DNA from: Ruditapes philippinarum
Lineage: Eukaryota
Reading direction: 5' to 3'
DNA length: 64,000 nucleotides
NCBI RefSeq assembly: GCF_026571515.1
Contig: NW_026852181.1
Coordinates: 62,001-126,000, forward strand
Part shown: in pieces, positions 9,500 to 61,489 of the stretch
Layout of the letters: every line of letters starts with the position of its first letter
How positions within the stretch are numbered: position 1 is the stretch's first letter
Position numbers and translations under genes: made by a program
Notes under the pieces: generated by a model
Told to the model about the DNA's origin: nothing
Database searches by the model: none
What the model saw: only the letters and a program-made list of their open reading frames with translations

Positions 9500-9985
9500 G
9501 TAACTGTAACGAATGTAAATACTTCTCTTAATTGCATTTACACTGCCTTGTTTAACAGTAACATGTTGGGGCTAAGAGTGATGTTTGGAGCACAATAGAC
9601 CAGTAGTGCCTCTGCAGCCGACCGTTCCATGGCGGCGTGACTCTTTGTTTCTCAGATGTATGTCTTGTATATTGTAATATGTTAATTGTGGTGACGTTTT
9701 TATTTTTTTTCCTGTTTCTTTTTCTTCTTTTTTTGTTATTATTGTTGTGAATTGTAAGAAAATCCCCTTTTTATCCTTGTCTGCTTTCAAATTGTGTCTC
9801 CTTTCTCAGCCCTCTGGCCCCATCCATTACGTCCGTTTTTTTTCCTTTTAATTGATTGACTTCTTTAATATCCTTTTTGCCCAGTTAAGCTCTTTGCCAG
9901 TGTATTGATGAGTTATGTTGAGGATGTTTCGTTGAATGTCATCCTTCCTTGTTTATCTTGATATTTGTTTGTATTTTTCTTTAAA
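9500..9985 (+). mobile_element. Old copy of repeat family X (Penelope-like non-autonomous, tentative)
   Basis: Reverse complement aligns colinearly with 62154-62700, e.g. ACATGTTGGGGCTAAGAG..GACCGTTCCATGGCGGCG..CTCAGATG, and ends TTCCTTGTTTATCTTGATATTTG. Confidence 0.65.
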
Positions 9986-11100: not shown

Positions 11101-11145
11101 CTCTCTCCCCCCCCCCCCCCCCTCACTCTCTCTCTCTCTTTCTTT
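11101..11145. repeat. (CT)n microsatellite interrupted by a poly-C run
   Basis: Read directly from the sequence. Confidence 0.9.
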
Positions 11146-13960
11146 CATGTTGAAATTCCCTTTCATATTGTTGTTTTATTTGATTGATTTTAGTTATGGT
11201 CGGTAGTAAGTACATGCTTCCACCTGGATCAGACATCACCGGCTGAAGCAGATTTCAATATTAAGACATGTAAATTGTGATGGTTTGAATTTCAATGAAC
11301 TACTATTCATTTTTGAAATATTGATAAAGAGCCAAACCACAAAGTCAAAGCATAGGCACAATGGGTGTGGATTATACACATGTCTATATGGAGAGTCAGG
11401 ACGTCTCTTTGTCTATATATTATTTCTATAATACTAACACCAGCAAAGTTATAACATATTTGCAAAGCATCGATTCTTACAAAAACTGATAGTTCGGTTC
11501 AAACTATCATTAAAATAATAAGCATTTACAGCTGTCTTCTGAATTTTATAATTTACAATCCTGCTTTTTAGATCAACGATCCAATGTAAATATAGAATAA
11601 TAGCTGCAATTATGTTAGATACTGTTTGATTTTGATTATTACCCAAATCCATTCACTTTAACTATCTAGAAAATCTAGCAAATGAAACATGTAACTTTAT
11701 TATCAATCAAAAACATCTTTTGATATTTTTCATTTCCTCACTTCCTAATAAATTCATTACATTTGGACTATACTCCGTTCCGGAATTTAACATTGATCGA
11801 GGAATATCCTAGTTTTCTAGATAACTGTATTGTACATGGAGAATAAAGAAATAAGACCAATTAAAGGGATGGTGTTGGTTGACTACATGTATGTCTTTAT
11901 ATAAAGAAACTTCACATTTTCGAGATCAATGTAGCATTTCATGTAGTTCTTGACCAATAAATTGTAAGCAAACTTCTTATTTTTCCGAGAATAATTATTT
12001 TAATTGTGAAAAATGTCCAACAACTGAAAATTGTTGCAACGCTTTTGCACTCGAATCGGGCTAAAACAGCACAACAATACAATTTCTGAGTATATAGCTT
12101 TACTATATTTTGCATAACTATCCAATCCATGTAAATAGTTGCAATATTATAGTTTTAGGTTTTTGGACCTCAGTGGAGTTCCGTTAACAACAAGTATTGT
12201 CTGCAATACATTAAACAGAAAACATTTAAAAAACTTTAAGACGAAATGTTCATACTCAAAAGACTCAAATGTACGAATATCCAACTTCATGACGTAACTG
12301 CCTAATAAATTGACGCTCATTAATCCTTCATGCTGTCGAATTGCCGTGCTTATGCATATGTTAACGCACGAAAGTTATGCATAACCCTTTTTGTCGCATT
12401 GAAAGTCATTTATCAAAACTTCTGAGAGTAACCGTAATATCTTATTATAGGGCAATCATGGCCTCTTGTTTAATTTCATATATTTCTATCTTATGATTCT
12501 TTTTTCAATTTACAGAGCAAAAAATGGTCGGATAGATTATTGACAACATTAGAAAAAATATATTACGTTTATGTTGCGTTAACGCTCAGATTTGATGATG
12601 TAACACAAGGAAATTGTAAACGAAACTTTAAGATATGCCACTTTATAATTGTTAATATTCATTTCTAGCATGCAAATGGACACATGATATATACTTTGTA
12701 AAATAAATGAGTTTGGACACTTATTTATTACTCGTTTTCAACGGGATACCCATAATCATGCACTAAAGTACCAAATGACTGCAGAAGAAATGGAACGGCT
12801 TATATGAGCAGTTGTTAACAATGTGCCAAGGGAATATTTGTATGATATAACAATTACATTTTAGATAAGCTTCGTCTTGTCATAATTGTATAATGTGTCA
12901 AACTTATATTTATATTATGAACGAGCAACCTTATACAGCTGATGCTATGTCATGATTAATATGACTGATAAAGTTCACTTGGTTATGTTCATTGACTTCG
13001 TCGTACTCTTTAACTATTGCGACAAACCTGGGTTCTAGTATGTCGAATTTAACGTGCTTCTGTTTGAAATATTTTAACGATTTAAGTATTAATGCAAATT
13101 AGACATTTCATAGATTGGTAAATAAAGAATTATACTTGTTCAATGTGTATGTTATTTATAAAGTCACGCTTTTGTTTTTATTTGTTAATTTTGTCCTACT
13201 AATATGAAGCTATCCATATCTAGACGTTAGCCAGTAACAAACTATCTGGAATATAAACAAATTGAAGTCAATAATATTTTCGTCAATAAGCAATTCAAAT
13301 TAACAAACATAACATTTTCTGTTATGAATTTCTATATTCATTTATCGTATAAGGATCAACTGTGTATAATATAAGGTTGCAAAGTATTTCGGTTTGTCTG
13401 ATAGCCAAAAGTCAATTTCAAGCAGCAAAGATCAATACCGATCATCAATTGATATACATAAATTAGGCAATAGCGTGATGTGTCAAATCTTTCCAAGACA
13501 TATATGTCTGTTCCTTGTACGTTAATATTAGGAGATTATGAAATAATACCGGTTAGCATGTTTATTCGATGACTTCTTGTCTGGTATATGTGTATATGTA
13601 GTTCCTTTATACGAAAATAAAATAATAGACAATGCTTGAATGAAAAATCAGATTTTTAGCTTAAAATCTCATATTAATAAAAATTAACTATCTAAAAGAT
13701 ATTATTAAAATTTAAAAATGTAGATTAGATATATAAATATATTATTAATTTGATTTTCTTATTTCCAAATTATATAAGTTTGCCTGTTGGAAGCACATAG
13801 ACTGCTCAGATGGTAGCATGTGCAATATTTCTCATTGTTACGTACAATGGTTAAATGCAGAATGTAGAAGCTTACTGTCATCTATTGCAAAAGGTATTGA
13901 CAAAAGATTAATGAGTCTGGACCATTTCTTTTTGTTTGGCAGTTTTCTTTTACTTTTTTC

Positions 13961-13979
13961 GGGGGGGGGGGGGGGGGGG
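13961..13979. repeat. Poly-G run (19 nt)
   Basis: Read directly from the sequence. Confidence 0.9.
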
Positions 13980-16900
13980 TGAAGGGCAATCGTTTATGTA
14001 TTCAAAGTTTTATTATAATACATAATCAATAACACACATAAGTGTATTTTTAATACAGTGAACATTCTAGGTTACTAAACTAATGTTAAAATTATCATAT
14101 TGCATGAAGTTAAGACATTGAGTAGAAAGCAGTTTGTGAGATGTTACATTTTCATATGATTTCACTTAATTGTCAGTCAATGCGTAATGACTATAAATAA
14201 CGTCCGTTTTACAGAGATCACTTGGCAATGTTCCCTGAATATTTCACTTGTTAATGAACTTCTTATTAAATTTGGTTCCTTTAAATTCTGTTTAGAATGA
14301 ATCACAATGGTCAGCTTAAAGCCACTGAGAATTTGTATTATACCACTACGAAAGACAAAACCTGCCTCAAATTGATAATGAAATAACAGCCTTGACGTAA
14401 TTAGGTTAAATATTTCCCCAATGATTATGATATACATGTTGATTTTTATGTGTAATTTGTAATTCGTAGAATGAAGAAATAATATCATAGCAGTTACAAT
14501 GTCTTTGTCAGAAAACATATGAGTTAATATTTTAAAATAAAGAAAAATCAATGTATTAACTTAAATATGCATGTATCAATAAGAACTTGAAAAACCAAAT
14601 ATAGTCGGCTCAATCCCCACAGATGATGAAGCCAGGAGCAGCGTAATCCAAATGTAAAAATAAGTTTTATATAAAGGTTTAATGAAAATTTTTATTAAAA
14701 TTTTGCAAGTGATAGGAAATTAGTCACATACATATCCCTGCTAGTAAATGAATAGCTTAAACCTTTCATTAATTTAAAACCAAATCAATCAGTTATCCAG
14801 TTATGTCTTTATGCCGTATGATCTGTATCAAATAACATTCTGTAAGGGATACAACTAAAAGAGCAAATGTCATTGTGGTTATATTGAAGCCAACCGGGAA
14901 AATATATATACCGTTCTTCAATCTTAATACGTCTTACGATAAGCTGTTTTCCAAAAAAAATGACTCAGTCATGTATTTTCTTTACATCACATCAAATATG
15001 GTGGTTTTAAATGTTATAGAAAGTTTCCCACAACGGATGTTCTCTTCTGTTTAATTGTCCTACTGTGAATCAAATTAGGCTCAACAGTGGAAAATAATAT
15101 CATTTTAAATCAGAATTTAAATAAAGATTCAGAAATATGGTGCCAGATTCTGGACGATTTACGAGCTCAATAAGATTCGGGAGTTTGAACTTATGCAGTT
15201 TTAAAGACAATCATCAAATTATATTGGAAAGCGATACTTACATCAGCCCAGTTACAATAACAAAGTTTTGATTCGATTTGAACAAAAATATTATGTTAAA
15301 ATGATAACATGACAATATACTTTCTAAGCATCAAAATGCATTAATCTAAAAATCTTAATATTTACATAGCAAAATATCGACCTGCTTTAAATCGTCTTTC
15401 TTTTTGTTTTACCTCAACCACAATTGCTTTTCTTTAAAGTAGATGTATAATTTGTTTTGGTGTCTTATAATTAACAATTATGTAGTGTCATCCTGCATCA
15501 TAAATAATATACTGTATGTCGTGCAGCGTTGTTGAATACTGATAATACAATCTAATATAAATGAATATATTTTTGCAAATGTACGTTACATTAAAAAAGC
15601 GAGTATTGATATTTATAAGCGTTTTAATTTTATTATACTTTTGTGAACCTAGACTTGAACAGATATCTTTAAAGTTTGATTTATGAAAACCTATCATTTG
15701 ATGACAAACCATCGCAATCAATCAAGTAGGACCGCATTTTATTTGGCACTAAACAAAGGCTAAATTAAGCGTTATTCTTCGTGTGCAAAAGAATTTTACC
15801 TATTTCATCGTCACAATGATCATAATATGTGTAATGTTACAAAACTTGTAGTTCAATTCAGTAAATGCAGTACTAAAACAGACTGACAATGTCACAAAGT
15901 TGACGTTTAATGTTGTAATGGTGTCCTCTGGGAAATTTGTACAAAACCATGGTACTAGCCCTTTAATAACTCGTTTAAGATATGGAGACAACAAATGATA
16001 ATACAATGTCTGGCATTTTTATTATACGTACATACAAGCCTGGAAGTAAAACATTGAAAAATACATACATTATTTTGTTAATATTTTTTAGTAAGAAAAT
16101 TTATTAGTTTGAAGAGAAATTTAGGATGGCATAAACTAAGAGTTAAAATTTGGAACGTTTAACGCATATATAAGGCACATTTTTTCATTTCATAAGTATA
16201 AAATGCAAAAGACAATAGTTTGGGTTGACAAAAAACAACAATTGCATGTAGGCCCATCTGAACATACTTTGATATCGTGTTGTTAGCAAAGATGTACCGA
16301 CTAAAACAAAATTATTAAAATGTGGCATTAAAATATTAATTCACAAAGGCTTTACAATAACTTGATCCGCAAGTATGTAAAAAAAACTCTTCAGAAATGA
16401 TGGGATATTCAGCAAATATTAGACTTTTGTCAGCAGAATGTACATCATAATTACAAACATACAAGTAACCGTACATTTCATGCTAAAAAGAAACATTATT
16501 CTACAAAATACTCTAAAATATAGTTAGATAAGAACATTGTGATACATGTAGTGATGTATTGTAGATATAGTTTAAATTATATCATTAGAAGAGAGAAAAT
16601 AAAATAATGATGCATTATATATACCAAGCAAAAGTTCCAAATAGTTCTTTGAAAGATGTTAACTTTATAATTCGAGCAACTAAGAATTTAACTTTTACAC
16701 ACCGTAACACTGACCAAAATTGTTAAACAAATGAGAAATCAAACTTGTTGTATGTATTATTTTCTTTGAATGTGCTTTTGCAAATTTTGCTGTTCCAGTT
16801 TTCAGATTCCTCTTGCATAAAAGCAACACAAAACATAAAATTCTTAAGAATGCCTCAACTGAGACCAGTCGTGAAAGCAAGAGTCATGTGTTGACGGCGG

Positions 16901-17330
16901 GTTAGAATTCATAATCATCGATGGAATTCTTCAAGAATATTAAATCAGTAGAAGACGTAACTTGATCCAATAAAAGCTTATCAATAACTAAAGAAATTGT
17001 GTATATGTTACATTGCCATTTACAACCATTAGACATTTGATGGTCTCAAAGTTTCTTTGTGATAAAATTTCGATCTTTTAATAATATAGACTAACTTTTC
17101 TTTGGCAATATAAATTATTTATCGGTTCTGTTTTAAGATACCATTACAAAATGTGTCTCTTTTCATAAAATACTGAAACTGCCTTTCTGTAACATTATAT
17201 TTGACTCAGTCATCACCTGCTGAGAGCTTTGATTAAACGTCATTAACAGTCATTTTCTCAAAAACATAAATTGTTTTAAAGAAAACAGTTTCAACGTGTA
17301 TAGCATTACAAACATATTTGAGTGTATGCA

Positions 17331-21620: not shown

Positions 21621-22619
21621 TTTTTATACCCCCGCAAAACAAAGTTGTAACTGGAATCAGCTTGTCCGTCCGGCCGTCCGGCTGTGCGGCCTTCGGGCGT
21701 CCGTCGGGTTTTTTCTTGTCCGCCCCATAACTTAAGAATCCTTTGACCCACAGTCCTCATATTTGGCATGGAGGTTAGTCGTGATTAGAAAATGATTCCT
21801 ATTGATTTTGAGGTCACCAGGTCAAAGGTCAAGGTCACAGGGACTTTGACTTCAAAAAGCTTGTCCGGCCAATAACTTAAAAATCCTAAGACCCACAGTC
21901 TTCATATTTGACATAGAGGTTAGTCAGGATCAGTAGATGATCAGTAGATGATCCCTATTGATTTTGAGGTCACCGGGTCAAAGGTCAAGGACACAGGGGC
22001 CTTGACTTCAAAAAGCTTGTCCGCCCAATCAATTAAGAATCCTTTGACCCACAGTCTTTAAATTTGGCATGGAGGTTACTCTCGATTAGTAAATGACCCC
22101 TATTGATTTTGAGGTCACAGGGGCCTTGACTTTAAAACGCTTGTCCGCCCAATAACTTAAGAATTCTTTGACCCACAGTCTTCATATTTGGCATGGAGGT
22201 TTATCGTGACCATTAGGTGACCCCTATTAATTTTCACTGGGTCAAAGGTCAAGGTCACAAAGCGTGTCCTCTAAATTGCTTAAGAAGGCTTTGGTCAACA
22301 GTCTTCATATTTGGTATTGAGATGGTTTATGATTAGAAGATGACCCTTTTTTATTTTAAGGTGACTATGTCAAAGGTCAAGGTCACAGGGGTTTTACTAT
22401 CATAAGCGTGTCTGCTCAAATGCTTTAGAATGCCTGTCCGCAGTGGATTGGTTTTGACATTTAAACATTTGAAGCATGTAGAAAACATAACTTAGCAATG
22501 CACTGGCTTAGTAACCTCAGATTTTGCAAGGAGGTTGTCTTTGAGCTCTCAATGGTCACTGTTGATGCTGACGAAGTGGTATGTGGGTGTATTCACGCCA
22601 TGACAGTGGCAGTTCTAGC
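21621..22619 (+). mobile_element. HINE/Helentron-type non-autonomous element with ~5 internal monomers of 123-156 bp
   Basis: 5' TTTTTATACCCCCGC, (GTCC)-like short repeat, monomers with GTCAAAGGTCAAGGTCAC, 3' subterminal GTGGGTGTAT then hairpin GCCA..TGGC and CTAG. Empty site in copy A is the T-run at 5493-5496, with no TSD. Confidence 0.85.
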
Positions 22620-24534: not shown

Positions 24535-27046
24535 CGTGATTCCATTTCTATTTTTCATTTGATGTTATGTCAGATATCTCCATTTCGTTCCAAAGAGTGA
24601 CAAATATACCATTTAAGCAATTTTCCGCCCTGCCAATTTCATTTCCCGTAATCAATTTTGATAAACAGCTTCTCTGACTGCTATTGTGTAATATATTAAC
24701 TTACTTATAAGATATAAGGACAGTTTTTATCTTATTTTCATATGTTTTTGTTTTCAAACTTGGTATAATAAAATATAATAGTCAACAAAAATGTTTGGTA
24801 TATCTCGCCTCAATGTCATAGAATAACCATGATCTATATCCACATAGAAGTAAAATTGTACTTTCAGAACAGACTGGAATGACATTACTAAGTCATTGTT
24901 AGGATTACATTGTAAGGATTACATTGTGGTTACATTTGACATAAGCTTTTATCCAAGGAATCTCAAAAAACAATTAGAATACAATCTATTCTGTATCATA
25001 TGAGACAATTTAATTACGCTGAAAAGTTTTTCTCGAAAATGATATTAATTAAGTTGTGCATATTAACATAAGTGAAGGCGTCTGTCAGAAAATACATCAC
25101 ATGGATTAAAGTGAAGTGTTCCATAACCATAAGTAGTATTAAGTATCATACAAACCACAAACAAATTATATAAAAATAGTGTTTGTAAGAAAGAGAAACA
25201 TATGATTCGACATGATATATCTGTATATAGCGGATGTAGCCCTATAATTTTCAATACTTAAACATTAATATCTCTATTAAATTCACATTTAAACAAATAT
25301 TTTATAAGAACATCCACACCAGACATTTGTTCTCACATTTTGTTTATTTGGAACTCTTCAAAATTGTTTCACTTTTATATGGTTATATAGAATAATTAAC
25401 TTTAAGGTAGAAACAGTTTGTTTGACATATACTGTTATACAAGAATGTTAAAAAGGACACTATTTGCAAAAATATTAAAATTGTTAACAATACCGATTGA
25501 AGGTTGATTTGAACAGTGTATTACATAAGAGTTGTTCCGGTATTCCATACAAATTTGAAAAACCAAGTTAAACAAAACACTTTACTAGACAAGTGATGAT
25601 CAAATATTAACCGGAATTTGTAGTTGATTCACTAACTGTTTGATGCATGTATATAAAAGTACACAGAACATAATTTGTAATCAAAATACAAATATATCAA
25701 CAGAAACAAAAAACATAAAAAAAATGTTATGCTTTATATAGCATGTACATATAAAGCAATCCTGCGCACGGTGTATCCTTATATTCGACGTTAACGTGAT
25801 TCCATTTCTATTTTTCATTTGATGTTATGTCAGATATCTCCATTTCGCTCCAAAGAGTGACAAATATACCATTAAAGCAATTTTCAGCCTTGCCAATTTC
25901 ATTTCCCGTAATCAATTTTGATAAACAGCTTCTCTGACTGCTATTGTGTAATATATTAACTTACTTATAAGATATAAAGACAGTTTTTATCTTATTTTCA
26001 TATGTTTTTTTTTCAAACTTGGTATAATAAGATATAATAGTCAACAAAAATGTTTGGTATATCTCGCCTCAATGTCATAGAATAACCATGATCTATATCC
26101 ACATAGAAGTAAAATTGTACTTTCAGAACAGACTGGAATGACATTACTAAGTCATTGTTAGGATTACATTGTAAGGATTACATTGTGGTTACATTTGACA
26201 TAAGCTTTTATCCAAGGAATCTCAAAAAACAATTAGAATACAATCTAATCTGTATCATATGAGACAATTTATTACGCTGAAAAGTTTTTCTCGAAAATGA
26301 TATTAATTAAGTTGTGCATATTAACATAAGTGAAGGCGTCTGTCAGAAAATACATCACATGGATTAAAGTGAAGTGTTCCATAACCATAAGTAGTATTAA
26401 GTATCATACAAACCACAAACAAATTATATAAAAATAGTGTTTGTAAGAAAGAGAAACATATGATTCGACATGATATATCTGTATATAGCGGATGTAGCCC
26501 TATAATTTTCAATACTTAAACATTAATATCTCTATTAAATTCACATTAAACAAATATTTTATAAGAACATCCACACCAGACATTTGTTCTCACATTTTGT
26601 TTATTTGGAACTCTTCAAAATTGTTTCACTTTTATATGGTTATATAGAATAATTAACTTTAAGGTAGAAACATTTTATTTGCCATATACTGTTATACAAG
26701 AATGTTAATAAGGACACTATTTGCAAAAATATTAAAATTGTTAACAATACCGATTGAAGGTTGATTTGAACAGTGTATTACATAAGAGTTGTTCCGGTAT
26801 TCCATACAAATTTGAAAAACCAAGGTAAACAAAACACTTTACTAGTGATGATCAAATATTAGCCGGAATAGGTAGTTGATTCACTAACTGTTTGGTGCAT
26901 GTATATAAAAGTACACAGAACATAATTTGTAATCATAATACAAATATATCAACAGAAACAAAAAACATAAAAAAATGTTATGCTTTATATAGCATGTACA
27001 TATAAAGCAATCCGGCGCACGGTGTATCCTTATAATCGACGTTAAC
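24535..27046 (+). repeat. Near-identical direct tandem duplication, unit ~1260 bp
   Basis: 24541 and 25801 begin with identical sequence; identical spurious ORFs at 25063 and 26321; 2-bp CG microhomology at the junction (25795). Confidence 0.95.
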
Positions 27047-28859
27047 GAGGTCACACGTGTATTGTCTTTATAGACCATTTTACTCATACTCGAAGTAAGC
27101 CCATGTTCCACAGCGAATCCACTGCCTATTTATATCTATGTAGAATTATAATATCTTATAATTATCTGGATGGCAATAATGACTTTCTTTAATGACGCAC
27201 ACTTATGTCCTTTCAACTGTACCATGACTGCTAGAGAACCTGCACCTGCAATGAACGTGTCTTAGAAAATTATTTGGCAGAATGATAATGTATGGTACAT
27301 AGGAATAACTTTTAATACGATTTTGTTACTTTTTCTTACATTGTTAGCAAAAGATGATTACATTTCAACATTTCATAATTACAAAACATTGTAAATGTGT
27401 CCTAGTTGTTACATTAATTTCAACACTAAGTAATCGTTTTGTTAAAATTCAACCGCTACGATCTGATAAATATTATCTTATACGTAACGAAACTTATATA
27501 AATCCTTATAATATATTGAACAATGTTAGTTTTATAATGCGGTGACATTTTGCTATAACGAATGGCGCAACAAAAATGCCAAACGGAACACGAAGCTAGT
27601 TAAGCTGAAATAATAGCTTTGATTATAACAACATAATGATGTTTGTATCACAACATGTGCATTTTTACATGATAACAGCAAATACAATTTATTCGGGAAA
27701 CACAAGTTTATTGTTTTGATATAACTCATCAGCGAATCTATTTTAAGAATACTTCGAAATAACAATTAAAATCCATTGGTTGGTCTTTTAACATATTAAA
27801 CAATTTGGTCGGAACACACAATTTATAGTTTTTGTGCCACTTACATTTGTATCGGCGAGACTATTTTAAGAACATAATAATAATTATCATTTTACAACAA
27901 AACGTCTTAGGTCAGTCTTTTAACATGATATAATTATCCATATCTGTAAATATAAACAAAATATTGATCTGGATACAATTTTAAGAATGTTTTATGTTTG
28001 CGTGTTGTTTTTTCTTTTTTCTATTGTATCACATTTATTTAGAGCTCTCTGTTCAGGACATTGTCAAACAGTTCAACTGATGCTCAACGGGGAATACAAA
28101 AATGACATTCAAATTAGAGTATTCACACGCTTGTAACGATTTTAATGCCGAGCATTAATAAAAACAAACTTTCATAGAATGCAGAAAAAAACCCAGAGGA
28201 AACAATAGAAGGAAAATTCCCGATCGACAAAAACATTTGTTAAGATACTCATTCGTGAAATCTGAAAGACTGGGGGTTTAACTGGAATTCTTAATTATAC
28301 GTTTATTATTGCATGTGCATTTTTTTACAGGACAGCAGCTTACATTGGCAAGACATTACGATCACAAACTTATGAGCAAACGTTAAAATCAACACCGATT
28401 TATTTATTTCATTCTGTCTGTGTATGCCTTAATATCTGAAAAAGTGCATCCTGAGCAAACTCAATAATTTATGAACAGGATTCTTTGACGTTCGATATGA
28501 AATGAAAACAAATTACAAAACCAAGATATGTGTCTTCTTAAAGTCTAAAAACATACCAATTTCTACTGTCTTTGTGTTTTTTTTAAATAGTCTCGTTTAT
28601 ATAATAAACGTTTGAGATAACATTTAAGTAAAATAATCTTCAAACATGAAGGTATAAAGCATTCTGATTGTTATTGCGTCGTAACTGACCATTGCTTTTT
28701 ATCCTACGTTTGTTCCAATTTCGCTCAAAAGAGAGACACATATTCCTTTACGGCAATTTCGCGCCTTGGCGATTTCATTTGCCATAATCAATTGTATTAA
28801 ACAGATTTCCTGTCTGCAACCTAGCTAATTAGTTTAAATATGTATATTTTGTGAAAAAA

Positions 28860-32100: not shown

Positions 32101-34323
32101 ATTCGGAATTTCATTTCCTAAAAAGAAAAAAAAACATTAGGTTTGGACTATATTCCGTTACATTGAACGTGACATCAAAACTGAAAGTTTTTATTCAAAA
32201 AAGGTTATCTTTATTCATCAAATATGATAATTATGCTTCTTGTTGACATGCCAGTGGTCATGTAGGCTATTTGGTCAAGAAATTGGCATTTTCAAAATTC
32301 CAAAAATACAATAAAGACAGGCGTGTGTGGAATTGGTAGTGTGTTCAAGCCGTATGGTCGAATCAAGTGTCTTTTACTTTTAGGCTGATGCATGATTTAC
32401 CGTCCTCAATAAAGTTGGCAACTAATCAAATTCATAGATTAAAATTATTGTTTTGATAATTTTCCTTGAAAATACTTTAGAACGCGCAATTTGCTCTTTT
32501 TAATCTGAACTTGTTTTTGTCTTCTGGGGGCTATGCCCCCACACCCCCTTTTATGGGCCTACAACTTGAAAAAAGCTGGCTACGCCCCTGCATGCTTCTC
32601 CCCACTGACAAATGAAAGGACAATCTGTTTAAACGGAAAAAGAAATCATACCAAAAAGTATTACAATATCCTTTGTGAAACTCAGAGATTATTTTTGAAA
32701 GAAGTAGCAACATCCATATGTAATTCAAACACAAGAGTTTCATTTTAAATAATATGAGAAATCTATATAGGCCAAACATAAACGATTGGGGCAAATGAAA
32801 TAAGTTATTGTATCCAACTTTAGAATATATGTTTTCCTACTTCTACTGTGCAAGCGAAAGCATTAATCCTATTATCAACAATTGTATTTTCAGTTATATG
32901 TTGTGATCATTTGCATTTTTTGCATATCTCTTATACAGCACAGCCAATAATATTATATTATATTTCAATATTATATTCGATTTTAATATTACTTATTCAG
33001 CATAATGTAAGAGTTCGAACTTGTTATCAACAAAGCTGATACAAAAGACATCCATCCTTGCATTGCGAATATATATCCCTATAAAAAGGTTTCAAAGTAC
33101 CAGAGGCGAAAACCATCTCTCATCGACCTTCAATTAAATTTTCTGAACTTTCGCTTGATGTGCTTGTATGTGCAAAAACTTGACAGTAATTGGTATTTCT
33201 TACAAATGAATATGAGTTCAAAGTCATAGAAATTCAGACAGACTTGACAAACCGTTGGTATCTACATTGTATATTTTAGGTTAAAAATAATGTATGATGT
33301 TATAGTCTGTGAAATAAATGTTTCTTTGGAATGAAATTTCTTTACAAATATTAATAATATCCATTATTCTACATTTCATGTTTTTAAAATGTTGAAAGTT
33401 ATGTTATCTTCTCTGGCATTCACATAATGAAGGCCGGGTCGTAATTTGCAAGTAACAATGTCTAACAGAATAATATACCCCGTTTGACATATATAATAAT
33501 CTCTTTAGTATTATGAAATACTATTGAAATAAATGTTCACGGTTGCTCATTGAATTCAATAAGTGTATCTACTGCCAAATATATTGATAACAAGCCCCGC
33601 AAAGAAAAGCTTGTTTCCTTTATAAAAAAATTTTTTCAAATTACAAATGAAAATTAAAAAATTAATCATTTTTATCAGCCATTTTCATTAATTGCTAAAC
33701 AATGGTTTTCAAAAATTATTACTTCCCCTTTTCCTTTTTTTGATTTAAAAAAATTAAAGGGAAATTAAAACGCTTTAAAAAAATTTGTATTAAAAATTTT
33801 GTTAAAATGAAAATTTTTTTCGGCGTCATAAACAACGGGTTCACATAATTAAAATAATTATTTAAAAAATGGGTTTTCCATACAAAAACTAAAGCACAAA
33901 ACGCTATGAATTTTGTCTTCTACGCAGAAAGCATTATTGTTTAAAATCATAGAAAAAAACCCCTTTAACTTGTGTTTTAAAATTTTAATAAATTTTTTTC
34001 GGAGGTGATAAGAAGTCAAATTTTATGTGGGAAATAAAATTCATGTTCTAAGACGTCAAAAAGTTCCCCTTTCCTCGTTTTTATGCGCATGCGTAAGAAA
34101 TGGTTGGTCAAAAATTATGTGCTAGGGGTTAAAATTTGTAGAAAAGTGTGTTTGTTGTTGCGTCTGCTATTAGATTTCCGACCATACCTAAAACAAAAGT
34201 CTGCCCTTATGGCAAGCAAAATTTTTCAACTAAAAAAAGGGAAATTTTTTAAGTTTAGAATTTTAAGTGCAAAGTGGTATTTTTTGGGTATATTAGGTAA
34301 GGGGTCATATAAAATTAACTTTG

Positions 34324-35352
34324 ATGACAAGAAAACGCAAAAAGTCGAAAACATCGCCTGGAGAAGAGAAATTAAATACTTCTAACAAAAGGCGCGAAAA
34401 TAAACAAAGACAAACAAAGGACAACATGGATAACGATAAAGGTCAGAAATTATGCTCAGATAGCTCAGAAAGTGAGATAAATTCTCCGCACACCTCACAG
34501 TATGGTAATACAGGTGTGGGGTATATGAATTCACCTAGCATGAACATAGCGGCTGGCCCATATCAGACCTGGGGATTGATAAATCCGGGACTGATCCAAA
34601 CTCCACAGACACCGTCCAGCCCTTTGGGGGCAATAAGTAGTGATATAGTTTCAGTTCTCTTGCAAAGATTAGACAGCATGGACAGTAAATTAGCCAAATT
34701 AGAAACTATACAAACAAGTGTGAACTCATTGAATTTACGCATTCAAAACATGGATAAAAAAATTAACGATCTCGAAAGAAAAGTTCTCGATATTGAGAGA
34801 AGTCGAGAATTCGACAGCCAAACATTTTCAGAAATAAGTAAACAACAAAAAGGTTTGGATACTTACATGAAAAAAATGGAAAAGTTCGAAAAAGATCATA
34901 AAGAAATGGAAAACGCATTAAAGGCAGAAATAATAGACCTTAAATCCCGCAGTATGCGCGACAATTTACTATTTCATAAGCTACCGGAAGAGAAAGACGA
35001 AAACTGCGAGGAAAAAATTATACATTTCATTCAAGATAAATTGAAGATCGATAACGCCATTGAGACGATACGGCTTCAGAGGGCTCACCGGGTAGGTCCC
35101 TTTAAGGCGGGCAAGATTCGACCGATAGTAGCCAAGTTCACGGAGTTTCACGATCGTGAAAAAGTCCGACGAGCAGCGAAAGAACTAAAAGGATCAAACT
35201 TCGGGATTTCAGAGCAGTTTCCTAAGGAGATCGTGGAGCAGCGAAGGAAACTTATTCCTATCATGCTACAAGCTAGGAAGGATGGCAAAGAGGCTTACCT
35301 CAAAGTTGACAAGCTCTATATAAACAATCAGCTATATCGCGGATCTACATAG
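34324..35352 (+). CDS. LINE ORF1p, L1-type (coiled coil + RRM + CTD), 342 aa
   Basis: Basic N-terminus, heptad-rich region, RSMRDNLLFHKLPE, RAHRVG..RPIVAKF, ISEQFPKEIVEQRRKL and DKLYINN, as in L1 ORF1p/Transposase_22-like proteins. Confidence 0.9.
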   Translation: MTRKRKKSKTSPGEEKLNTSNKRRENKQRQTKDNMDNDKGQKLCSDSSESEINSPHTSQYGNTGVGYMNSPSMNIAAGPYQTWGLINPGLIQTPQTPSSPLGAISSDIVSVLLQRLDSMDSKLAKLETIQTSVNSLNLRIQNMDKKINDLERKVLDIERSREFDSQTFSEISKQQKGLDTYMKKMEKFEKDHKEMENALKAEIIDLKSRSMRDNLLFHKLPEEKDENCEEKIIHFIQDKLKIDNAIETIRLQRAHRVGPFKAGKIRPIVAKFTEFHDREKVRRAAKELKGSNFGISEQFPKEIVEQRRKLIPIMLQARKDGKEAYLKVDKLYINNQLYRGST

Positions 35353-38300
35353 GACTCTTGTGAGAATGTTCTTAAGTGTCTTTCGTGGAACATAGAAGGA
35401 CTAACCCATGAGAAAACAACATCACAAGATTTTTTGAATATTGTGTGTGAGTATGAAATAATATGTCTTAGTGAATCATGGACAAATAAAAACTCCAATA
35501 TTGATATTCACGGTTACTCAAATCCTATTCATTCTTATCGAAAAATTCAACATAGGCGAGCAAAAAGATCGAGTGGTGGTTTAATTGTTTACATTAAGAA
35601 CAATATTCGAAACGGAGTCACATTAATACAAAATACAATAGACTGTATTATCTGGCTAAAGTTAGATAAATATTTTTTCAATATTGAAGACGATTATTAT
35701 ATATGTTTTACTTATATTGCTCCGGAATCTTCTCCGGTTCATAATGTGTATAATGTTGATATTTTCACTCAACTCGAACAAGATATAATTTTTTTTAGTG
35801 ATCGTGGGAAAATATTTTTGTCTGGTGACCTAAATAGTAGAATTAGTAGTAAAGCAGATTTCATTCAATTTGATCGTAATATAGAGGCGAATGACGTAAT
35901 TACCGTCGACACTTTCCTGCCTCGTTCCACGCAAGATAGGTCAACCAATCGTTTTGGGGATAGCTTGCTAGATCTTTGCAAAGCAACCTATCAACGCATT
36001 GTTAACGGTAGATGGCCAGGTGATCGTGGGAATTTTACCTGCGTGACCTACAATGGGGCTAGTGTAGTTGATTATTTATTGACAAGTCAAAATAACTTTG
36101 ACCTCATTGCCAATTTCGCGGTTAAAGAGTTCACTACTTATTCTAACCATGCACCCCTATCTTTCTCTTTTAAAATAAACTCTAAATTTAGTAATGACAG
36201 CTGTAGTTATAAGGAAAAGTCATACTATAAGTTTGATGATAGATACAGGGAATTGTTTACACTCGATTTAACTAATAACATACAGTCTTTATTAAATATC
36301 TTAAATACAGAAATAAGCGGAGACGGAGATTTTGATACGCTTACTTCTATGTTTACGGACTTTCTGTGTACGCACGGCGACAAGTATTTTAAAAGATCAT
36401 CTCACGAAACGTCAAATATCTGTAATCAAGTACGTAAAAAGAATGAAGAATGGTTTGATCATGTATGTCGGACTAAATATGACACATATAAAAAAGCAGT
36501 TACGCAATTTAACCTAACGTTTTCGGATGCGGATAGGGTTTCAATGTATAACGCAAAAAAGGATTATAAATACCAATGCCGAAAATCTAAAAATTCTTTT
36601 AATTATGCACAAGGCCGAAAAATGAACCAATTACGAAAAAAATCTCCCAGGGAATTCTGGAAAACGTTTAAACATAATAAAACAAGTAAATCTGGGGAAA
36701 ATATATCTAATCAAGAATTTAATGACTACTTTAAAAATCTTATGGGCGGGGATGTTCAGTGTGATGATGAAGGATTTGTACGGAATTTGAGGGATTTTGA
36801 TACCGATTTAAATCGACAAGGCAATAATGAGTTGTTGGACTTGCCAATATCTGATGACGAAATTTTTAAAGCAATAAACAAGTTAGGGTCAAATAAATCA
36901 CCTTCAATTGATAATATTTTATATGAGTATTTTAAGGTAGCTGCCCCTCTTCTAGTTAATCCTTTGAATTTATTTTTTAATCAGATTTTAAATTCTGGCA
37001 AGTTCCCTCGTGCTTGGTCCACTGGAGTAATTATACCTATATATAAAAAAGGGAACCAGTCTGATCCAAATAACTACAGGGGCATCGCTATAACCAGTTG
37101 TTTTGCAAAACTATTTACTGTTTTACTAAATGAAAGATTAAAAACATGGGTAGAAGTGAACAACGTTTTAACTGATGCCCAATTTGGCTTTAGGAATAAA
37201 TATAGTACTGTAGATCCTGTTTTTATTTTAAACGCATTAATTCAAAAGCAACTTCTGAACAAAAATAAACTGTACTGTTGTTTTGTAGATTATAAAAAAG
37301 CTTATGACTCTATCGAGAGAAGTAGGCTATGGTATAAATTTATAAAACTAGGAATAGATGGTAAATTTCTGTCGGTATTAAGATCAATGTACAGCGAAGT
37401 GAAACTTTGTGTAAAACATTTAGGGAGCCTATCTGACTTTTTCAAAAGTAATTTAGGTTTGTTCCAAGGAGAAATAACTTCGCCGATTTGCTTCTCTTTA
37501 TTTTTAAATGATATAGAAATGCAATTACAGGAAAATATTGACGCTGGAATAAATATTGATCAAATTGCGATATATTTGCTCCTATTCGCTGATGACGCGG
37601 TAATCGTCTCTGAAACAAGTACGGGGTTACAGAAATCACTAGATAGTTTATATTCTTATTGTTGTAAATGGAACCTTACAGTTAACATAGAAAAAACTAA
37701 AGTTATAGTGTTTAGGAAAGGGGGGAAGTTAAGAAGAAACGACAAATGGTATTATAATAATCATGAAATAGAAATAGTCAAGTCTTTTAATTACCTAGGG
37801 GTTGTATTCTCCAGTGGAGGGTCTTTTATGCAAGCAGCAAACACATTAGCCGGGAAAGGGTTGCGATCTCTACATTCTTTGTGGGCTATTGTTCGTAGTA
37901 TGAAAGTTCCAATAAATATATTGTTTAATCTTTTTGATTCGTATGTACTTTCTGTTTTAAATTATGGTGCAGAGGTATGGGGTTGTATAAATTCAGAGGT
38001 AATAGAAAGAGTACATAAGAAATTTTGTAAATGGATACTAAATGTTAAACAATCTACACATACTCTAGCTCTCTATAGTGAGTTAGGTAGATTTCCACTC
38101 TATATAGAAAGACATGTTAAAATGGTTAAATATTTTCTGATGATTAATACCGTCAAGTCTGAAAATTGCATACTTAAGACGGTTTTACAAGATCAAATCA
38201 AAAGTCTAGAGCTAAACGAATCAATAAAAAATTGGGTCTCATTTATACGCGATATCCTTCAGTCTTCTGGTCTAAGTGAAGTCTGGTTATATCCAGAATC

Positions 38301-38781
38301 CGTTAAAATAAATGTATTTGTTCCGGTCTTGCGTTGTAGGCTTAGAGATATATACATAAGTAATTGGAGAACGGGGTTGCAGATGTCAAGTTCCTTAAAT
38401 ATTTTCCGGGAGATAAAAGATACATTTGAACAGTCAAATTATATCAGACTATTAGAAAATACAAAATTTAGAAACGCACTGGCTAAATTACGTCTCTCAT
38501 CACATAAACTTAACATTGAAGTCGGCCGACACTACAATATTCCGCGCGATGAACGTAAATGTACACTATGTAATTTAAACGACCTAGAGGACGAATTTCA
38601 CTTTGTTTTAAAATGTACAGCTTATGTCGATTTAAGAAGGTTATATATACCCAGATATTATTATACCCACACAAATGTAATTAAGTATATATCATTAATG
38701 CAAAGTAGTAATAAGAAGATCTTAAAAAATTTGGCTCTATATTGTTTTAAAGCTTTCAAATTAAGGGATTCACTATTGTAA
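35353..38781 (+). CDS. LINE ORF2p: APE endonuclease + reverse transcriptase + C-terminal CCHC finger, 1142 open codons with no start ATG
   Basis: APE motifs SWNIEGL, LSESW, GDLNSR, VDY, SNH. RT motifs NYRGI, QFGFR, FVDYKKAYD, QGEITSP, LLFADD, YLG. C-terminal CTLC-x8-H-x4-C. Open from directly after the ORF1 stop. Confidence 0.95.
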   Translation, partial: DSCENVLKCLSWNIEGLTHEKTTSQDFLNIVCEYEIICLSESWTNKNSNIDIHGYSNPIHSYRKIQHRRAKRSSGGLIVYIKNNIRNGVTLIQNTIDCIIWLKLDKYFFNIEDDYYICFTYIAPESSPVHNVYNVDIFTQLEQDIIFFSDRGKIFLSGDLNSRISSKADFIQFDRNIEANDVITVDTFLPRSTQDRSTNRFGDSLLDLCKATYQRIVNGRWPGDRGNFTCVTYNGASVVDYLLTSQNNFDLIANFAVKEFTTYSNHAPLSFSFKINSKFSNDSCSYKEKSYYKFDDRYRELFTLDLTNNIQSLLNILNTEISGDGDFDTLTSMFTDFLCTHGDKYFKRSSHETSNICNQVRKKNEEWFDHVCRTKYDTYKKAVTQFNLTFSDADRVSMYNAKKDYKYQCRKSKNSFNYAQGRKMNQLRKKSPREFWKTFKHNKTSKSGENISNQEFNDYFKNLMGGDVQCDDEGFVRNLRDFDTDLNRQGNNELLDLPISDDEIFKAINKLGSNKSPSIDNILYEYFKVAAPLLVNPLNLFFNQILNSGKFPRAWSTGVIIPIYKKGNQSDPNNYRGIAITSCFAKLFTVLLNERLKTWVEVNNVLTDAQFGFRNKYSTVDPVFILNALIQKQLLNKNKLYCCFVDYKKAYDSIERSRLWYKFIKLGIDGKFLSVLRSMYSEVKLCVKHLGSLSDFFKSNLGLFQGEITSPICFSLFLNDIEMQLQENIDAGINIDQIAIYLLLFADDAVIVSETSTGLQKSLDSLYSYCCKWNLTVNIEKTKVIVFRKGGKLRRNDKWYYNNHEIEIVKSFNYLGVVFSSGGSFMQAANTLAGKGLRSLHSLWAIVRSMKVPINILFNLFDSYVLSVLNYGAEVWGCINSEVIERVHKKFCKWILNVKQSTHTLALYSELGRFPLYIERHVKMVKYFLMINTVKSENCILKTVLQDQIKSLELNESIKNWVSFIRDILQSSGLSEVWLYPESVKINVFVPVLRCRLRDIYISNWRTGLQMSSSLNIFREIKDTFEQSNYIRLLENTKFRNALAKLRLSSHKLNIEVGRHYNIPRDERKCTLCNLNDLEDEFHFVLKCTAYVDLRRLYIPRYYYTHTNVIKYISLMQSSNKKILKNLALYCFKAFKLRDSLL

Positions 38782-39023
38782 TAATATAAATGTCATTCTC
38801 AATCTTATATCATTATTTTTTTTGTTATTTTTTATTCCATGTAAATTTTGAGTATATATAAATATATTTCTTCCTTTGTTACATTCTCACGATATATGTG
38901 TTAAGGAAATAATAATTCATGTATTATATGTAAAATCTTCCATGTCATACCAATATATATATATGTTCTTTTTTCATTGTTAACGACGATGGGCTTGTAA
39001 TGCTTAAGTCAAATAAAATATTT

Positions 39024-39048
39024 GTTCTGTTCTGTTCTGTTCTGTTCT
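39024..39048 (+). repeat. (GTTCT)5 microsatellite forming the LINE 3' tail
   Basis: Read directly; starts just after AATAAA at 39012. Confidence 0.9.
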
Positions 39049-40943
39049 TAATTTTGACCGAACGTGAGATCCAATACATACAAACATAAAATCTGCATTT
39101 CTCTTGTAGATCAGCTTGAACACTTAAAACAAATTGAAAAAGCAAAACATAATTTAGAAATGTATACATAAATAACTTATGATGTCCAATTCGGGAAAGC
39201 GTACTTTAAAAAAAACAATTTTCACCTAATTGTGTTTTCTCTTCAGGTGGGAATATTTAAAATTTTTCTCTTTATTAAACTTAAAAAATTTATGTTTGTC
39301 CTTTCTAAAGAAGTGAAACTTAATTCATTTATTGGGCATAATGTACCTTTGATAAGAAACGTTTGACAGTGTGAGTTTTACAAACCTACATTTTGTAGAC
39401 AGAGCTTCGTGTATAAAATTGTACAGTTCCAGATGCAGATTTGAACTTTAAAATCAGTTGGCCTAGATTTCAACATAATGCCTGTCTTTTACCTATACTT
39501 ATCATCAGTCCTCTGATATTTTGAAGCTTTATATAGGGCAATCATGACCCTCTTGAATAATTCCATATATTTCTATGTTACAATTATTTTTAAATTAGTA
39601 ATGCTTATAGTGTAAGCATTGGTCAGATAGATTATTGACAACATAAGAAAATAATGTTAGTGTTGCGTGAACGCTCTAACTTGATAATGTAACACATGTA
39701 AATTGTACAAAAAAGATGAAACGTCAAAATATGTCACTTCATAATTTTTTAAAATTCATTTCTAGCATGAAAGTTAACACAGATTATAGTAAAATGATAT
39801 TGTTTGCATGCTTGTTTGTAATTCGTTTTCAACCGGGATACCCGTACTCAAGTACTTAAGTACCAAATGACCGCCAATAACTCGGAAAAGCTTATTTGTA
39901 AGATATAACAATTAGATTTTAGATTATCATTGTCGTGTCATAATGATATAATGTGACAAACTCATATTTATATTATGAACAAACAACTTCATACACCTGA
40001 TGCTAAGCTATGATAGATATGTCGGAACATACGATATGGTGCACTTGTCAAAGTTCATTTGCTTTTCGTATCCTATCAATATTTCGACTGAAAAACAGAT
40101 CGTATAATTAACAATCTATGTAAACATTCTTTCAAAATACTTACTTACAAGTACAAAATATTTGTATTGCTACATTTGATAAAAGGAATTGTAACCTAAC
40201 AGCAATATTTAACAATATGAAATAAATGAGCATGTTTGCAGTATTTATTTGCCCTTTGACATATATCAGCAAAGTAGTATATATTTGGGTAATGTTTTGG
40301 TAGTGATCTTCGGTGTATATGAACTCCGTGAAAGTTATAAGAAGAATATCTGATAAGCTATCATAAGAACTCCCTCTTCCGTGGTCATATTTTGTGTTGT
40401 ATATTAAAAAAAAAAATAATACACCAATTAAATCTTTTAAAAGCTTCTTGATATTACTAGAAATCTGGGTTTTATCTTAAAAATACACAGATGTACAGCG
40501 GATGCATTTTTTTCTTTTAAATGTGCACTTTACTTTTACTTAATTAGTACATATTTTAAAAGATTTTTATCTTGAACGAGGAAACATTTGTTTGTCTACA
40601 CTTTATCATTTTGTTTATCTTACACCCATTTTGAATACGAAGTATTGATAGTTTATTGGGTAACATAATTAGATTAATTACAACATGCCTAATGAACGGT
40701 AATAGAAATACTTAAAATGAACTATATTGCGTGTAAATATTTGTATCTTTATTGTAACGTAGAGCGTCTTGAAATGGAAGTTTATGTCATAAAATTAGTT
40801 GAACAATTTGAATTGATGATACACAAACTGCATTAACTAGTACAATCCGATTATATCTTTTATAAATGTTTTAATGCCATTTCAGTCTTTAAGTTTTCTA
40901 TATTTAGCTTAAAGATCCTGTAACTCAATTGTTTATGGTTATA

Positions 40944-48225: not shown

Positions 48226-49339
48226 AACAAGAGCACCGCTAGGCGGAGCATTATATGCCCGACAATGTTGTTGTTTTTTTAGTAAGGATGAAGCATTTGT
48301 TAGACATTACATAAATTAAATAAAGTATTACCTCCTCCAAATAGCAATCCTCCTATAAAGTTTGAATATTGTGGGCCAAATGGAACTTAAGTTATGCTCT
48401 GGAAACTGTTTTCATTTTTGAGGTAATAGCGATCTTGAACTTTGACCTTGTGACCTCAAAAGCAATAGGGGTGTTCAACCCAATATGGACAATCATCCTA
48501 TGAAGTAATAGTGACCTTGACCTTTGAACTTGTGACCCCAAAATCAATTGGGGTCTTCTACCTAATATGGACAATTATCCTATGAAGTTTGAATATGTGG
48601 GCCATATGGAACTTAAGTTATGCTCCGGAAACTGTTTTCAGTTTTAAAGTAATAGTGAAATGCTCCGGTTTTAAAGTAATAGTGACCTTGACATTTGATC
48701 TTGTGACCCCAAAATCAATAGGGACCTTCTACCCAATATGGACAATAATCCTATGAAGTTTGAATATTGTGGGACAAATAAACCTAAAGTTATGCTCCGG
48801 AAACTGTTTTCAGTTTTAAGGTAAAAGTGACCTTGACCTTCGACCTTGTGACCCAAAATCATTAGGGGTCTTCTACCCAATATGGACAATCATCCTATGA
48901 AGTTTGAATATTATGGGCCACATTGAACTTAAGTTATGCTCCGGAAACTGCTTTCAGTTTTAAAGTAATAATGACCTTGACCTTCGACCGTGTGACCCTC
49001 AATCAATAGGGGTCTTCTACCCAATATGGACAATCATCCTATGAAGTTTGAACACTGTGGGCCGAACGGAACTTAAGTTACGCTCCGGAAACTGTTTTCA
49101 GTTTTTAGGTGATAGTGACCTTGACCTTTTACCTTGTGACACCAAAATCAATAGGGGTCTTCTACCTAATATGAACAATCATCCTATGAAGTTAGAATAT
49201 TGTAGGCCAAAAGGAACTTAAGTTCTGCTCCGGAAACCAAATTGCTAACGGACGGACGGATAGACAGACAGACAGACAGACGGACGGACACCAGGGGGCA
49301 TAACATAATATGCCCAAAAATTTTTCGGGCATATAAAAA
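48226..49339 (-). mobile_element. HINE/Helentron-type element with ~6 monomers of ~145 bp and (GGAC/AGAC)n
   Basis: Minus-strand 5' TTTTTATATGCCCGA plus hairpin; microsatellite 49248-49290; monomers with TGACCTTGACCTT; 3' subTIR TCGGGCATATAA, hairpin GCTCCGC-CTA-GCGGTGC, then CTTGTT. Empty site is the A-run at ~16379-16386 in copy A. Confidence 0.88.
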
Positions 49340-59890: not shown

Positions 59891-60017
59891 CACAAGAAAC
59901 ATGGCAATGCCATGAAACCAGGTTTTCAATAATCACCATTGTAGATAAATATGTTGTATTTGAAATACAAATACAAGCAACAAACAATGTAACTATGTGC
60001 AATGTAAAACATGAATA

Positions 60018-60590
60018 ATGTAGGAGGAATTGCGCACAGAAGAAGTGTTCACTATATATATTCTGTATAAGGAAAAAAAAACAAAGGGCCATAATTAGGT
60101 AAAAAATTATCCAATCACAAAACCCCGACAATATGTGCTAGGGCACTTGATGACAAAGCTTCTGTGAAAGTTTGAACAAAATCCGTTGAGAAATGTAGGA
60201 AGAGTTCAGCACAGAAGAATTTGTTCAATTCTGTATAAGGAAAAAAAACAAAGGGCCATAATAAGGTCAAACATTATCCAATCACAAAACCCTGACAATA
60301 TGCGCCAGGGCACTTGATGACAAAGCTTCTGTGAAAGTTTGGTCAAAATCCGTTGAGAAATGTAGGAGAAGTTGCGCACTGTAGAAATTGTTCACTATAT
60401 ATTCTTTATAATGAAAAAAAACAAAGGGCCATAATTAGGTCAAATATATACCAATTGCAAAACCCTGACAATATGTGTCAGGGCACTTGATGACAAAGCT
60501 TCTGTGAAAGTTTGGTCAAAATCCGTTGAGAAATGTAGGAGGAGTTGCGCACAGAAGAAATTGTTCACTATATATTCTATATAATGAAAA
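60018..60590 (+). repeat. Tandem array, ~3.3 units of ~170 bp
   Basis: ACAAAGGGCCATAAT..GGGCACTTGATGACAAAGCTTCTGTGAAAGTTTG..AATCCGTTGAGAAATGTAGGA occurs three times. Confidence 0.92.
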
Positions 60591-60604
60591 ATAAAATCAT
60601 GTAA

Positions 60605-61042
60605 ACAGGATTTTCAATGTTAATGTCACTGTGACCTTGACCTTGGAGCCAGCCATGCGGAACATGCGTTCTGCACGTCATCTTGATGTGGTAAACATTT
60701 GTCTGAAGTTTCATCAAAATTCTTCAAAGGGTTGAAGAGTTACAGAGCGGACAGGATTTTCAATGTTAATGTCACTGTGACCTTGACCTTGGAGCCAGCC
60801 ATGCGGAACATGCGTTCTGCACGTCATCTTGATGTGGTAAACATTTGTCTGAAGTTTCATCAAAATTCTTCAAAGGGTTGAAGAGTTACAGAGCGGACAG
60901 GATTTTCAATGTTAATGTCACTGTGACCTTGACCTTGGAGCCAGCCATGCGGAACATGCGTTCTGCACGTCATCTTGATGTGGTAAACATTTGTCTGAAG
61001 TTTCATCAAAATTCTTCAAAGGGTTGAAGAGTTACAGAGCGG
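60605..61042 (+). repeat. Tandem array, 3 apparently identical 146-bp units
   Basis: Units start at 60605, 60751 and 60897; identical ORFs 146 bp apart in the track. Confidence 0.95.
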
Positions 61043-61489
61043 ACACAATTTCGTTTGACGCCCGCCCATCCGCCCGCCATACCCCAATCTAATAACCAGG
61101 ATTTTCAAAATTGAAAACCTGGTTAAAAAGGACAATGCCATCATCCCCTCAATTTGAGCTTATCCCTCCAAAACAATGATGATGCCTTACATACAGATGA
61201 CAAAAAAAACAATGATACTTGAATTTCCATACTAAGGACATTAAGAACAAATAGGTTATATGTTTGATTTTTGATTTTCCTATCATATGTGTTCTTGTAT
61301 TTTCTTTAATTCATACTATTCTTATAAATGTGAAATTTCTTTTGAAATAAATTATTGATTACAATTAAAGATTTTTGAATTTACAGCTGTAATTGTGTTC
61401 ATTCTTTGAAATATGTACCAAAGGAAGATCTTAAATGTTTATTTAATGTTTGTACCTTAAACTGTTCTGTTATTTAATATGGTACTTTT

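Follow-up and report, generated by a model that had tools for sequence, protein, structure and literature searches.

A LINE of Ruditapes philippinarum whose ORF2 has no start codon and follows a single in-frame UAG: a candidate case of stop-codon readthrough

How the second open reading frame (ORF2) of long interspersed elements (LINEs) is translated is a long-open question that has been studied mainly in L1 and SART1, in which reinitiation is used and the two ORF products are believed not to be fused. Here, we analysed a stretch of 64,000 nucleotides from the clam Ruditapes philippinarum (contig NW_026852181.1, positions 62,001 to 126,000 of the forward strand), hereafter referred to as the window, which carries a LINE with two open reading frames separated by one in-frame TAG. 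ORF2 of this element has no start codon of its own, and the same layout is found in distant relatives. The junction is probably best explained by programmed readthrough of the UAG, which would yield an ORF1-ORF2 fusion.

The element and its junction

ORF1, as translated from the window, has 342 amino acids and runs from an ATG at 34324 to the TAG at 35350-35352. ORF2 begins at the base directly after this TAG, in the same frame; it reads GAC TCT TGT and stays open, without interruption, to the TAA at 38781 (1142 amino acids). The earliest in-frame ATG, at 36349, is codon 333 and is located beyond the entire endonuclease domain. The other 15 ATGs between 35301 and 36400, including those at 35366 and 35408, are all out of frame with ORF2, and the start that an automatic track places at 35434 is a TTG. 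With X at the stop, the fusion of both frames comprises 1485 amino acids. A preliminary description of this DNA, which gave the stop, the first in-frame ATG, the out-of-frame ATGs at 35366 and 35408 and a fusion of about 1485 residues, was accurate. Counting codons from the stop, the sole in-frame near-cognate codon before the Asn of the first endonuclease motif (SWN) is AAG at +8. No ATG that overlaps or adjoins the ORF1 stop, as in a SART1-type stop-start, was found within 60 nucleotides upstream, and the nearest ATGs downstream are out of frame and open for 1-9 codons only. Restart at the ATG at 35366 followed by a frameshift was rejected, as this ORF has 9 codons and no slippery heptamer was seen by eye. 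A late first methionine is by itself weak evidence, with a chance of about 0.03 at the methionine frequency of ORF2, and the case for readthrough therefore rests on conservation in relatives.

The element has the traits of an APE-type LINE, namely an ORF2 with an APE endonuclease and a reverse transcriptase (RT), and a simple-repeat 3' tail (Table 1); no long terminal repeats (LTRs) were found around it in the window. A search of the PDB with the single endonuclease sequence gave no match. An AlphaFold model made from 63 sequences (mean predicted local distance difference test score of 93.6) has as its best Foldseek match the L1 endonuclease 8sp7 (E=3.7e-13), and in this model ORF2 residues 5-13 form the first β-strand of the endonuclease, which aligns with residues 6-14 of the L1 endonuclease. 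In the profile alignment, the Asn of SWN (+13), which we take to be an active-site residue, pairs with residue 14 of chain 2v0s (L1 endonuclease), and the stop therefore sits at the position of Met1 of L1 ORF2. Translation starting at AAG +8 or further downstream would truncate the endonuclease fold, as codons +5 to +13 encode part of its structure. A profile of 47 ORF1 relatives weakly matches human L1 ORF1p 2yko (E=0.016), ranking under several coiled-coil chance matches. ORF1 is 98% identical, over 58% of its length, to the R. philippinarum RefSeq protein LOC132751777.

The RT motif LFQGEITSP is found in 18 published mollusc RT sequences (PMC10294476). All six of these sequences that were checked, including R. 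philippinarum clusters, are labelled RTE-X, and by eye the RT is nearer to RTEX-10_CGi than to Proto2-1. Furthermore, the full-length ORF1 is a trait that sets RTE-X apart from RTE-BovB (PMC3905857). These similarities indirectly point to an RTE-X-type LINE, the placement being by shared RT motif and not by a tree with named references. Bivalve RTE-X elements likewise have two ORFs with APE and RT and matching RT motifs, and their reported mean length is 4937 bp (Martelossi et al. 2023, PMC10294476), compared with about 4.7 kb from ORF1 to the tail in the window. The LINE, judged from its sequence, is intact and probably recently active.

Table 1 Features of the LINE in the window.
Feature	Positions	Strand	Basis or remark
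ORF1, 342 aa	34324..35352	+	basic N-terminus, coiled coil, L1-like RRM, C-terminal domain; ends in TAG
Candidate readthrough site	35350..35353	+	lone in-frame UAG then G; at the place of L1 ORF2 Met1
ORF2, 1142 aa	35353..38781	+	uninterrupted, without own start codon
Stop to first motif Asn, 13 codons	35353..35391	+	linker DSCE (4 residues), then β-strand 1
Possible extended stem-loop 3' of stop	35356..35429	+	candidate stimulator, weakly supported; -21.7 kcal/mol, z=-2.5 (80-nt window)
APE-type endonuclease	35380..36099	+	Pfam PF03372 E=2e-7, ORF2 residues 10-249
First in-frame ATG of ORF2	36349..36351	+	codon 333
Reverse transcriptase, RTE-X type	37045..37806	+	Pfam PF00078 E=1.7e-32, ORF2 residues 565-818
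C-terminal Cys/His motif CTLC..EDEFHFVLKC	38560..38616	+	seen in translation; presumably zinc-knuckle-like
3' tail (TGTTC)5	39023..39048	+	likely end of element

The junction in relatives

The stop is shared within the family, as the ORF1 cluster of the window has three other proteins and each of them terminates at this residue, in YRGST. The last motif is recognisable in 108 of 120 ORF1 matches, and the commonest tail length (26 proteins) is that of the window. Of 113 proteins examined from ten other, related ORF1 families, 81 extend to the C-terminal motif and 80 of these end at the position typical of their family, and the endonuclease motif occurs in none of the 103 non-representative members. 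Full-length natural fusions were absent from the 7 matches among proteins of 600-2000 amino acids, and the ORF1 domain was recognised in none of 42 ORF2 matches; both blanks count as weak evidence.

A scan of genome contigs with an ORF1-only profile yielded a single locus from 179 candidate stretches. This locus, L001, is a LINE-bearing contig in a bacterial metagenome-assembled genome record and is the one unbiased independent sample of the junction. Its ORF1 and ORF2 are 33% and 32% identical to those of the window, respectively. ORF1 of L001 ends GGA TAG (TAG and the following G at L001:1458-1461), ORF2 continues in frame with GGG TGT CCG GAG, the motif Asn is at codon +13 and the first ATG is at codon 86. 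The stop is thus followed by G in both, and both DNA sequences lack an in-frame ATG before SWN; a stop private to this copy or an upstream ATG, which the preliminary description had named as fatal to readthrough, was not found. Of the bases after the stop in the UAG-GAC-U context that it had proposed, only the +4 G appears to be conserved, as L001 has UAG-GGG. The ORF1 tail of L001 is 19 codons longer than that of the window, yet its Asn is at +13, and therefore length has varied upstream of the stop and remained fixed downstream. The 13-codon distance also recurs in the proteins P0173, P0230, P0235 and P0281, and different families share D1 and E4 of the linker.

In L001, the 5' part of ORF1 is split over two frames (179-685 and 567-1460) and ORF2 is broken near 4058; slight decay of this copy, or mis-assembly, is the probable cause. 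Both junctions have +1-frame stops at +41 and +50 (35393-35395 and 35402-35404 in the window, 1501-1503 and 1510-1512 in L001); these stops, which close short out-of-frame ATG ORFs, are probably a by-product of the coding motif.

Matches to both sides of the junction were seen in 12 of the 341 fetched proteins with a match, and six of these, 34-70% identical, are continuous through it (P0173, P0230, P0235, P0281, P0240 and P0285). At the stop position they hold K, Q, Q, S, N and V, respectively, and the next residues are D, D, E, D, D and Q. Asp or Glu, whose codons start with G, thus follows in five of the six (background 0.24), and a residue one base from TAG (K, Q, Q or S) occupies the stop position in four (background 0.41). 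P0173 and P0230 read DKSESV(I/L)KCLSWN, aligned with DSCENVLKCLSWN in the window. The two-sided proteins that were left out have an N-terminal extension only (P0303), a long linker (P0278), or skip the junction (P0238, P0283, P0293 and P0335). P0281 and its cluster mate P0371 have a heavily deleted ORF1 joined to the endonuclease through the Ser at the stop position, and possibly represent a derivative with a fixed fusion. P0278, an ORF1-endonuclease fusion with a long linker, belongs with P0036, P0037, P0038 and P0035 to a related group in which long leaders precede the endonuclease; this branch may have a single ORF or a different kind of joint.

An endonuclease tree of 151 sequences was made from the 176 of 384 proteins that passed a coverage filter, 25 cluster mates having been dropped. 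It has a clade of 43 members with the window and L001 (support 0.83) and a sister clade of 87 members (support 0.70). Start sites were counted after leaving out 21 sequences outside both clades, 5 long or fused proteins and 2 stop-to-stop ORFs. The gene-called ORF2 start is inside the domain or at most 7 residues from the Asn in 33 of 37 members of the window clade, compared with 8 of 86 in the sister clade. A longer tree from endonuclease to RT (65 sequences, FastTree) has such starts in 16 of 18 members of three subclades, those of the window, of L001 and a third, and in 3 of 37 members of a large other group; the five-member group with long leaders lies among the window and L001 subclades. 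V or L stands at several called starts, and an M in one Logan record corresponds to an L in its cluster mate, so an M in such records does not prove an ATG. These counts suggest that the missing start codon marks a lineage group. The stop-separated layout itself is a real lineage-level feature, kept by distant relatives. P0015, P0016, P0020, P0030 and their neighbours form a further endonuclease group, with ORF2s mostly called from inside the domain, and may share the stop-separated junction.

Readthrough and its alternatives

Readthrough of the UAG into ORF2 is, in our judgement, the probable explanation of the junction, and the case for it is strengthened by a stop that is not private and by the lack of an in-frame ATG before SWN. 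Readthrough accounts at once for the frame shared by both ORFs, the lone UAG with its +4 G, the conservation of the linker and the lack of a start codon. Most ribosomes would halt at the UAG and release ORF1p (342 amino acids), and a few per cent would insert an amino acid at UAG-G, probably assisted by a 3' RNA element, and make the ORF1p-ORF2p fusion of about 1485 amino acids. The stop would then fix the ratio of ORF1p to ORF2p, like that of gammaretroviral Gag and Gag-Pol. No protease domain was detected in the element's proteins, so the fusion would probably stay uncleaved. More speculatively, the coiled coil of ORF1 would deliver the enzyme to the ORF1p particle on the RNA of the element itself. 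We lean slightly towards the broader proposal that an old, broad mollusc RTE-X branch independently reached a Gag/Gag-Pol strategy, with UAG-G readthrough and an uncleaved fusion that co-assembles with free ORF1p, so that the enzyme would be tethered to its own RNA by construction.

Both DNA junctions have a UAG stop, a 3'-adjacent G and an in-frame downstream ORF, the sequence pattern of type III readthrough, which is defined by UAG then G and usually has a 3' structure (PMC3542737). Of the structures suggested in the preliminary description, the two 7-bp stems (35366-72/35387-93 and 35378-84/35395-401) do exist, each with one G-U pair, and as separate hairpins have energies of -4.3 and -6.4 kcal/mol; they are not shared with L001 and form no feasible pseudoknot. 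The two-stem pseudoknot was rejected as stem 1 and the 3' arm of stem 2 are separated by a single base (35394). Given the loop lengths of H-type pseudoknots, a loop of one nucleotide is infeasible, and the two stems are therefore alternatives. The extended stem-loop of Table 1 is a weakly supported candidate stimulator. Its z-score applies to the 80-nt fold window only, the other 11 of 12 fold windows tested having z-scores above -1.3, and the best z-score 3' of the stop in L001 is -2.2, at 60 nucleotides, as the best of 12 windows. Enumeration gave different pseudoknots for the window and for L001, and a secondary structure common to both was rejected since no fold is shared in register. No long-range pairing partner stood out from the next-best ones, in a comparison made with no shuffled control, and an Rfam search of the junction gave no match. 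The gammaretroviral type of signal, a purine-rich 8-nucleotide spacer and a compact H-type pseudoknot, was not found, the spacer of the window being GACUCUUG. In the first 17 codons, four of the six codons with synonymous alternatives, including the rare TCG, are identical in the window and L001; the rare-codon score of this segment ranks 1 of 261 (p=0.09 by count), which suggests a nucleotide-level signal at the junction.

Several observations weigh against readthrough. Just two junctions, those of the window and L001, are known as DNA. The fused proteins were selected for being in frame; P0240 is a gene model with N at the stop position, and P0285 fits only after a shift of one residue, its Q standing one position later. 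The codons of the fusions may come from point mutation, sequencing error, TAG read as Q, or a predicted intron. The called-start counts share ancestry and depend on gene callers, and the Fisher p of 5e-18 for 33/37 versus 8/86 ignores relatedness; the longer tree does not unite the window and L001 in a clade of their own. Four of the 37 proteins (P0007, P0241, P0294 and P0352) are called from 10-30 residues upstream, and these starts may be true ATGs. A conserved stimulator was not found, the in-register consensus fold of the window and L001 having -1.0 kcal/mol, and z-scores are similar or lower elsewhere in ORF2. Moreover, the LTR element Tca2 of Candida albicans, which has one stop between its structural and enzymatic ORFs and for which its sequence had led to a proposal of readthrough, showed none in a reporter test (PMC7175516). 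Finally, the place of the stop, exactly at Met1 of L1 ORF2, means that a restart at +1 would yield a complete domain, and the ORFs of mammalian L1 are in frame with each other, with AUG-independent reinitiation possible and no fusion seen in rat (PMC11485995, PMC2241872).

These last two points favour AUG-independent termination-reinitiation, as in mammalian L1 and caliciviruses, in which the terminating ribosome would use a non-AUG codon, at the stop or immediately beyond it, to begin a separate ORF2p. The fixed distance from stop to domain would suit a tethered restart, L1 ORF2 translation is described as AUG-independent (PMC11485995), and post-termination ribosomes can restart at non-cognate codons in vitro (PMC5972666). 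However, reinitiation needs neither the same frame nor UAG nor a +4 G, and both DNA junctions have all three. The near-cognate codons are not shared either, being AAG +8 in the window and AAG +5, ATC +7 and GTG +9 in L001, and out-of-frame ATGs that would compete are found close downstream (+14 in the window; +23, +38 and +44 in L001). A lineage using reinitiation would also be expected to regain an ATG often, as the sister clade apparently did. We therefore regard reinitiation as unlikely, although it is the rival that survives best.

Splicing is considerably less likely. The TAG/G would then be a 3' splice acceptor, and an intron would take out the end of ORF1 with its stop; TAG/G agrees with the YAG/G consensus at both DNA junctions, the fixed endonuclease distance would be explained, and the four proteins that skip the junction do so as though spliced. 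Those proteins, however, lack strand 1 of the endonuclease as well. In L001, the 21 nucleotides upstream are free of T and so hold no pyrimidine tract, the T content in the window (0.29) is average for its 219 YAGG sites, and an acceptor would not need the TAG to be the in-frame stop of ORF1 itself. Adenosine-to-inosine editing of UAG to UIG (Trp) in some transcripts is more improbable still. UAG is a preferred ADAR triplet, but edited RNA would give TGG daughters, and Trp is at the stop position in none of the six continuous fusions; duplexes over the stop are only short and interrupted. A viral precedent for such editing is given in PMC3542737. Least probable, and largely refuted, is a dead copy whose stop is due to a nonsense mutation of its own, to a sequencing error or to the loss of an ATG by insertion of one base (ATG to ATAG): the junction ACATAGGAC is one base from ATG GAC, but the other proteins of the family stop at this residue too, the junction recurs in L001, P0173 and P0230 hold the exact register without an indel, and both ORFs are otherwise intact.

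Known systems and the surroundings of the element

For LINEs, readthrough has been predicted before, in Paramecium (PMC5405496). In the Group 3 non-LTR elements of this ciliate, ORF1 and ORF2 are in one frame with an "in-frame stop", and the authors, working with consensus sequences, put forward read-through (Guerin et al. 2017, PMC5405496). These elements, unlike that of the clam, form a separate ciliate clade, and the two arrangements are likely of independent origin. In the genetic code of Paramecium, UGA is the sole stop.

Among animal LINEs, L1 is similar in its bicistronic RNA, mutually in-frame ORFs and an ORF1 of similar type, but has a spacer of about 60 nucleotides, two in-frame stops and an ATG (PMC2241872), whereas the clam LINE has no spacer, one stop and no ATG. 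Silkworm SART1, also bicistronic, has an overlapping UAAUG (PMC5972666, PMC3708506), and the clam LINE has no ATG there. In the excerpts of these two papers, reinitiation and 2A peptides are the only routes given for LINE ORF2 translation. Murine leukaemia virus (MLV) and other type III sites have UAG-G between a structural or RNA-binding ORF and a polymerase ORF, as here (PMC3542737). The clam element differs from MLV in that it is not a virus and that no purine-rich 8-nucleotide spacer, compact pseudoknot or fusion-cutting protease was found in it.

The main text of PMC10294476 contains neither "readthrough" nor "read-through", its excerpts do not describe the ORF1/ORF2 junction, and the excerpts of PMC11203168, PMC5009743, PMC5753468, PMC4559204, PMC2861651 and PMC3045867 contain nothing on this junction. 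No report of readthrough for RTE-X or other animal LINEs was found in the literature covered, which excludes Repbase entries, the complete bivalve library and subscription journals, any of which may already record the junction. From viruses, readthrough into a polymerase is already known. If it is indeed used here, this would to our knowledge be the first animal LINE lineage with programmed readthrough. The conserved single-stop junction makes a third route of ORF2 translation directly testable, and it accounts for the truncated ORF2 proteins and the spurious introns that annotation pipelines produce there. If readthrough is indeed used, the many families of the lineage would be a natural library of readthrough signals, a LINE endonuclease and RT could work with ORF1p attached, and the ratio of ORF1p to ORF2p and cis preference would have a simple basis.

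No second copy of the LINE was found within the 64-kb window. The element sits in the second copy of a segmental duplication, in a gap without counterpart in the first copy. This old tandem duplication (about 4781-17236 versus 20930-50863, 68-80% identity) is too diverged to show edges, and the 5' end of the element could not be located from the paralogous segment without it. With the 5' end undefined, a target-site duplication was sought between the 3' flank and 33001-34323, and no match longer than 7 nucleotides was found. An imperfect inverted match flanks the LINE, with GGTCAAAAATTA at 34106-34117 and TAATTTTGACC at 39049-39059, directly after the tail. Elsewhere in the window, a recent tandem duplication of about 1.26 kb is located at 24535-27047 (97.8% identity), and satellite-like arrays with units of 124-173 bp, some of them interrelated, are found at 21715-22419, 48345-49237 and 60017-61051. 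In the last of these, the copies of a 146-bp array at 60605-61045 are identical.

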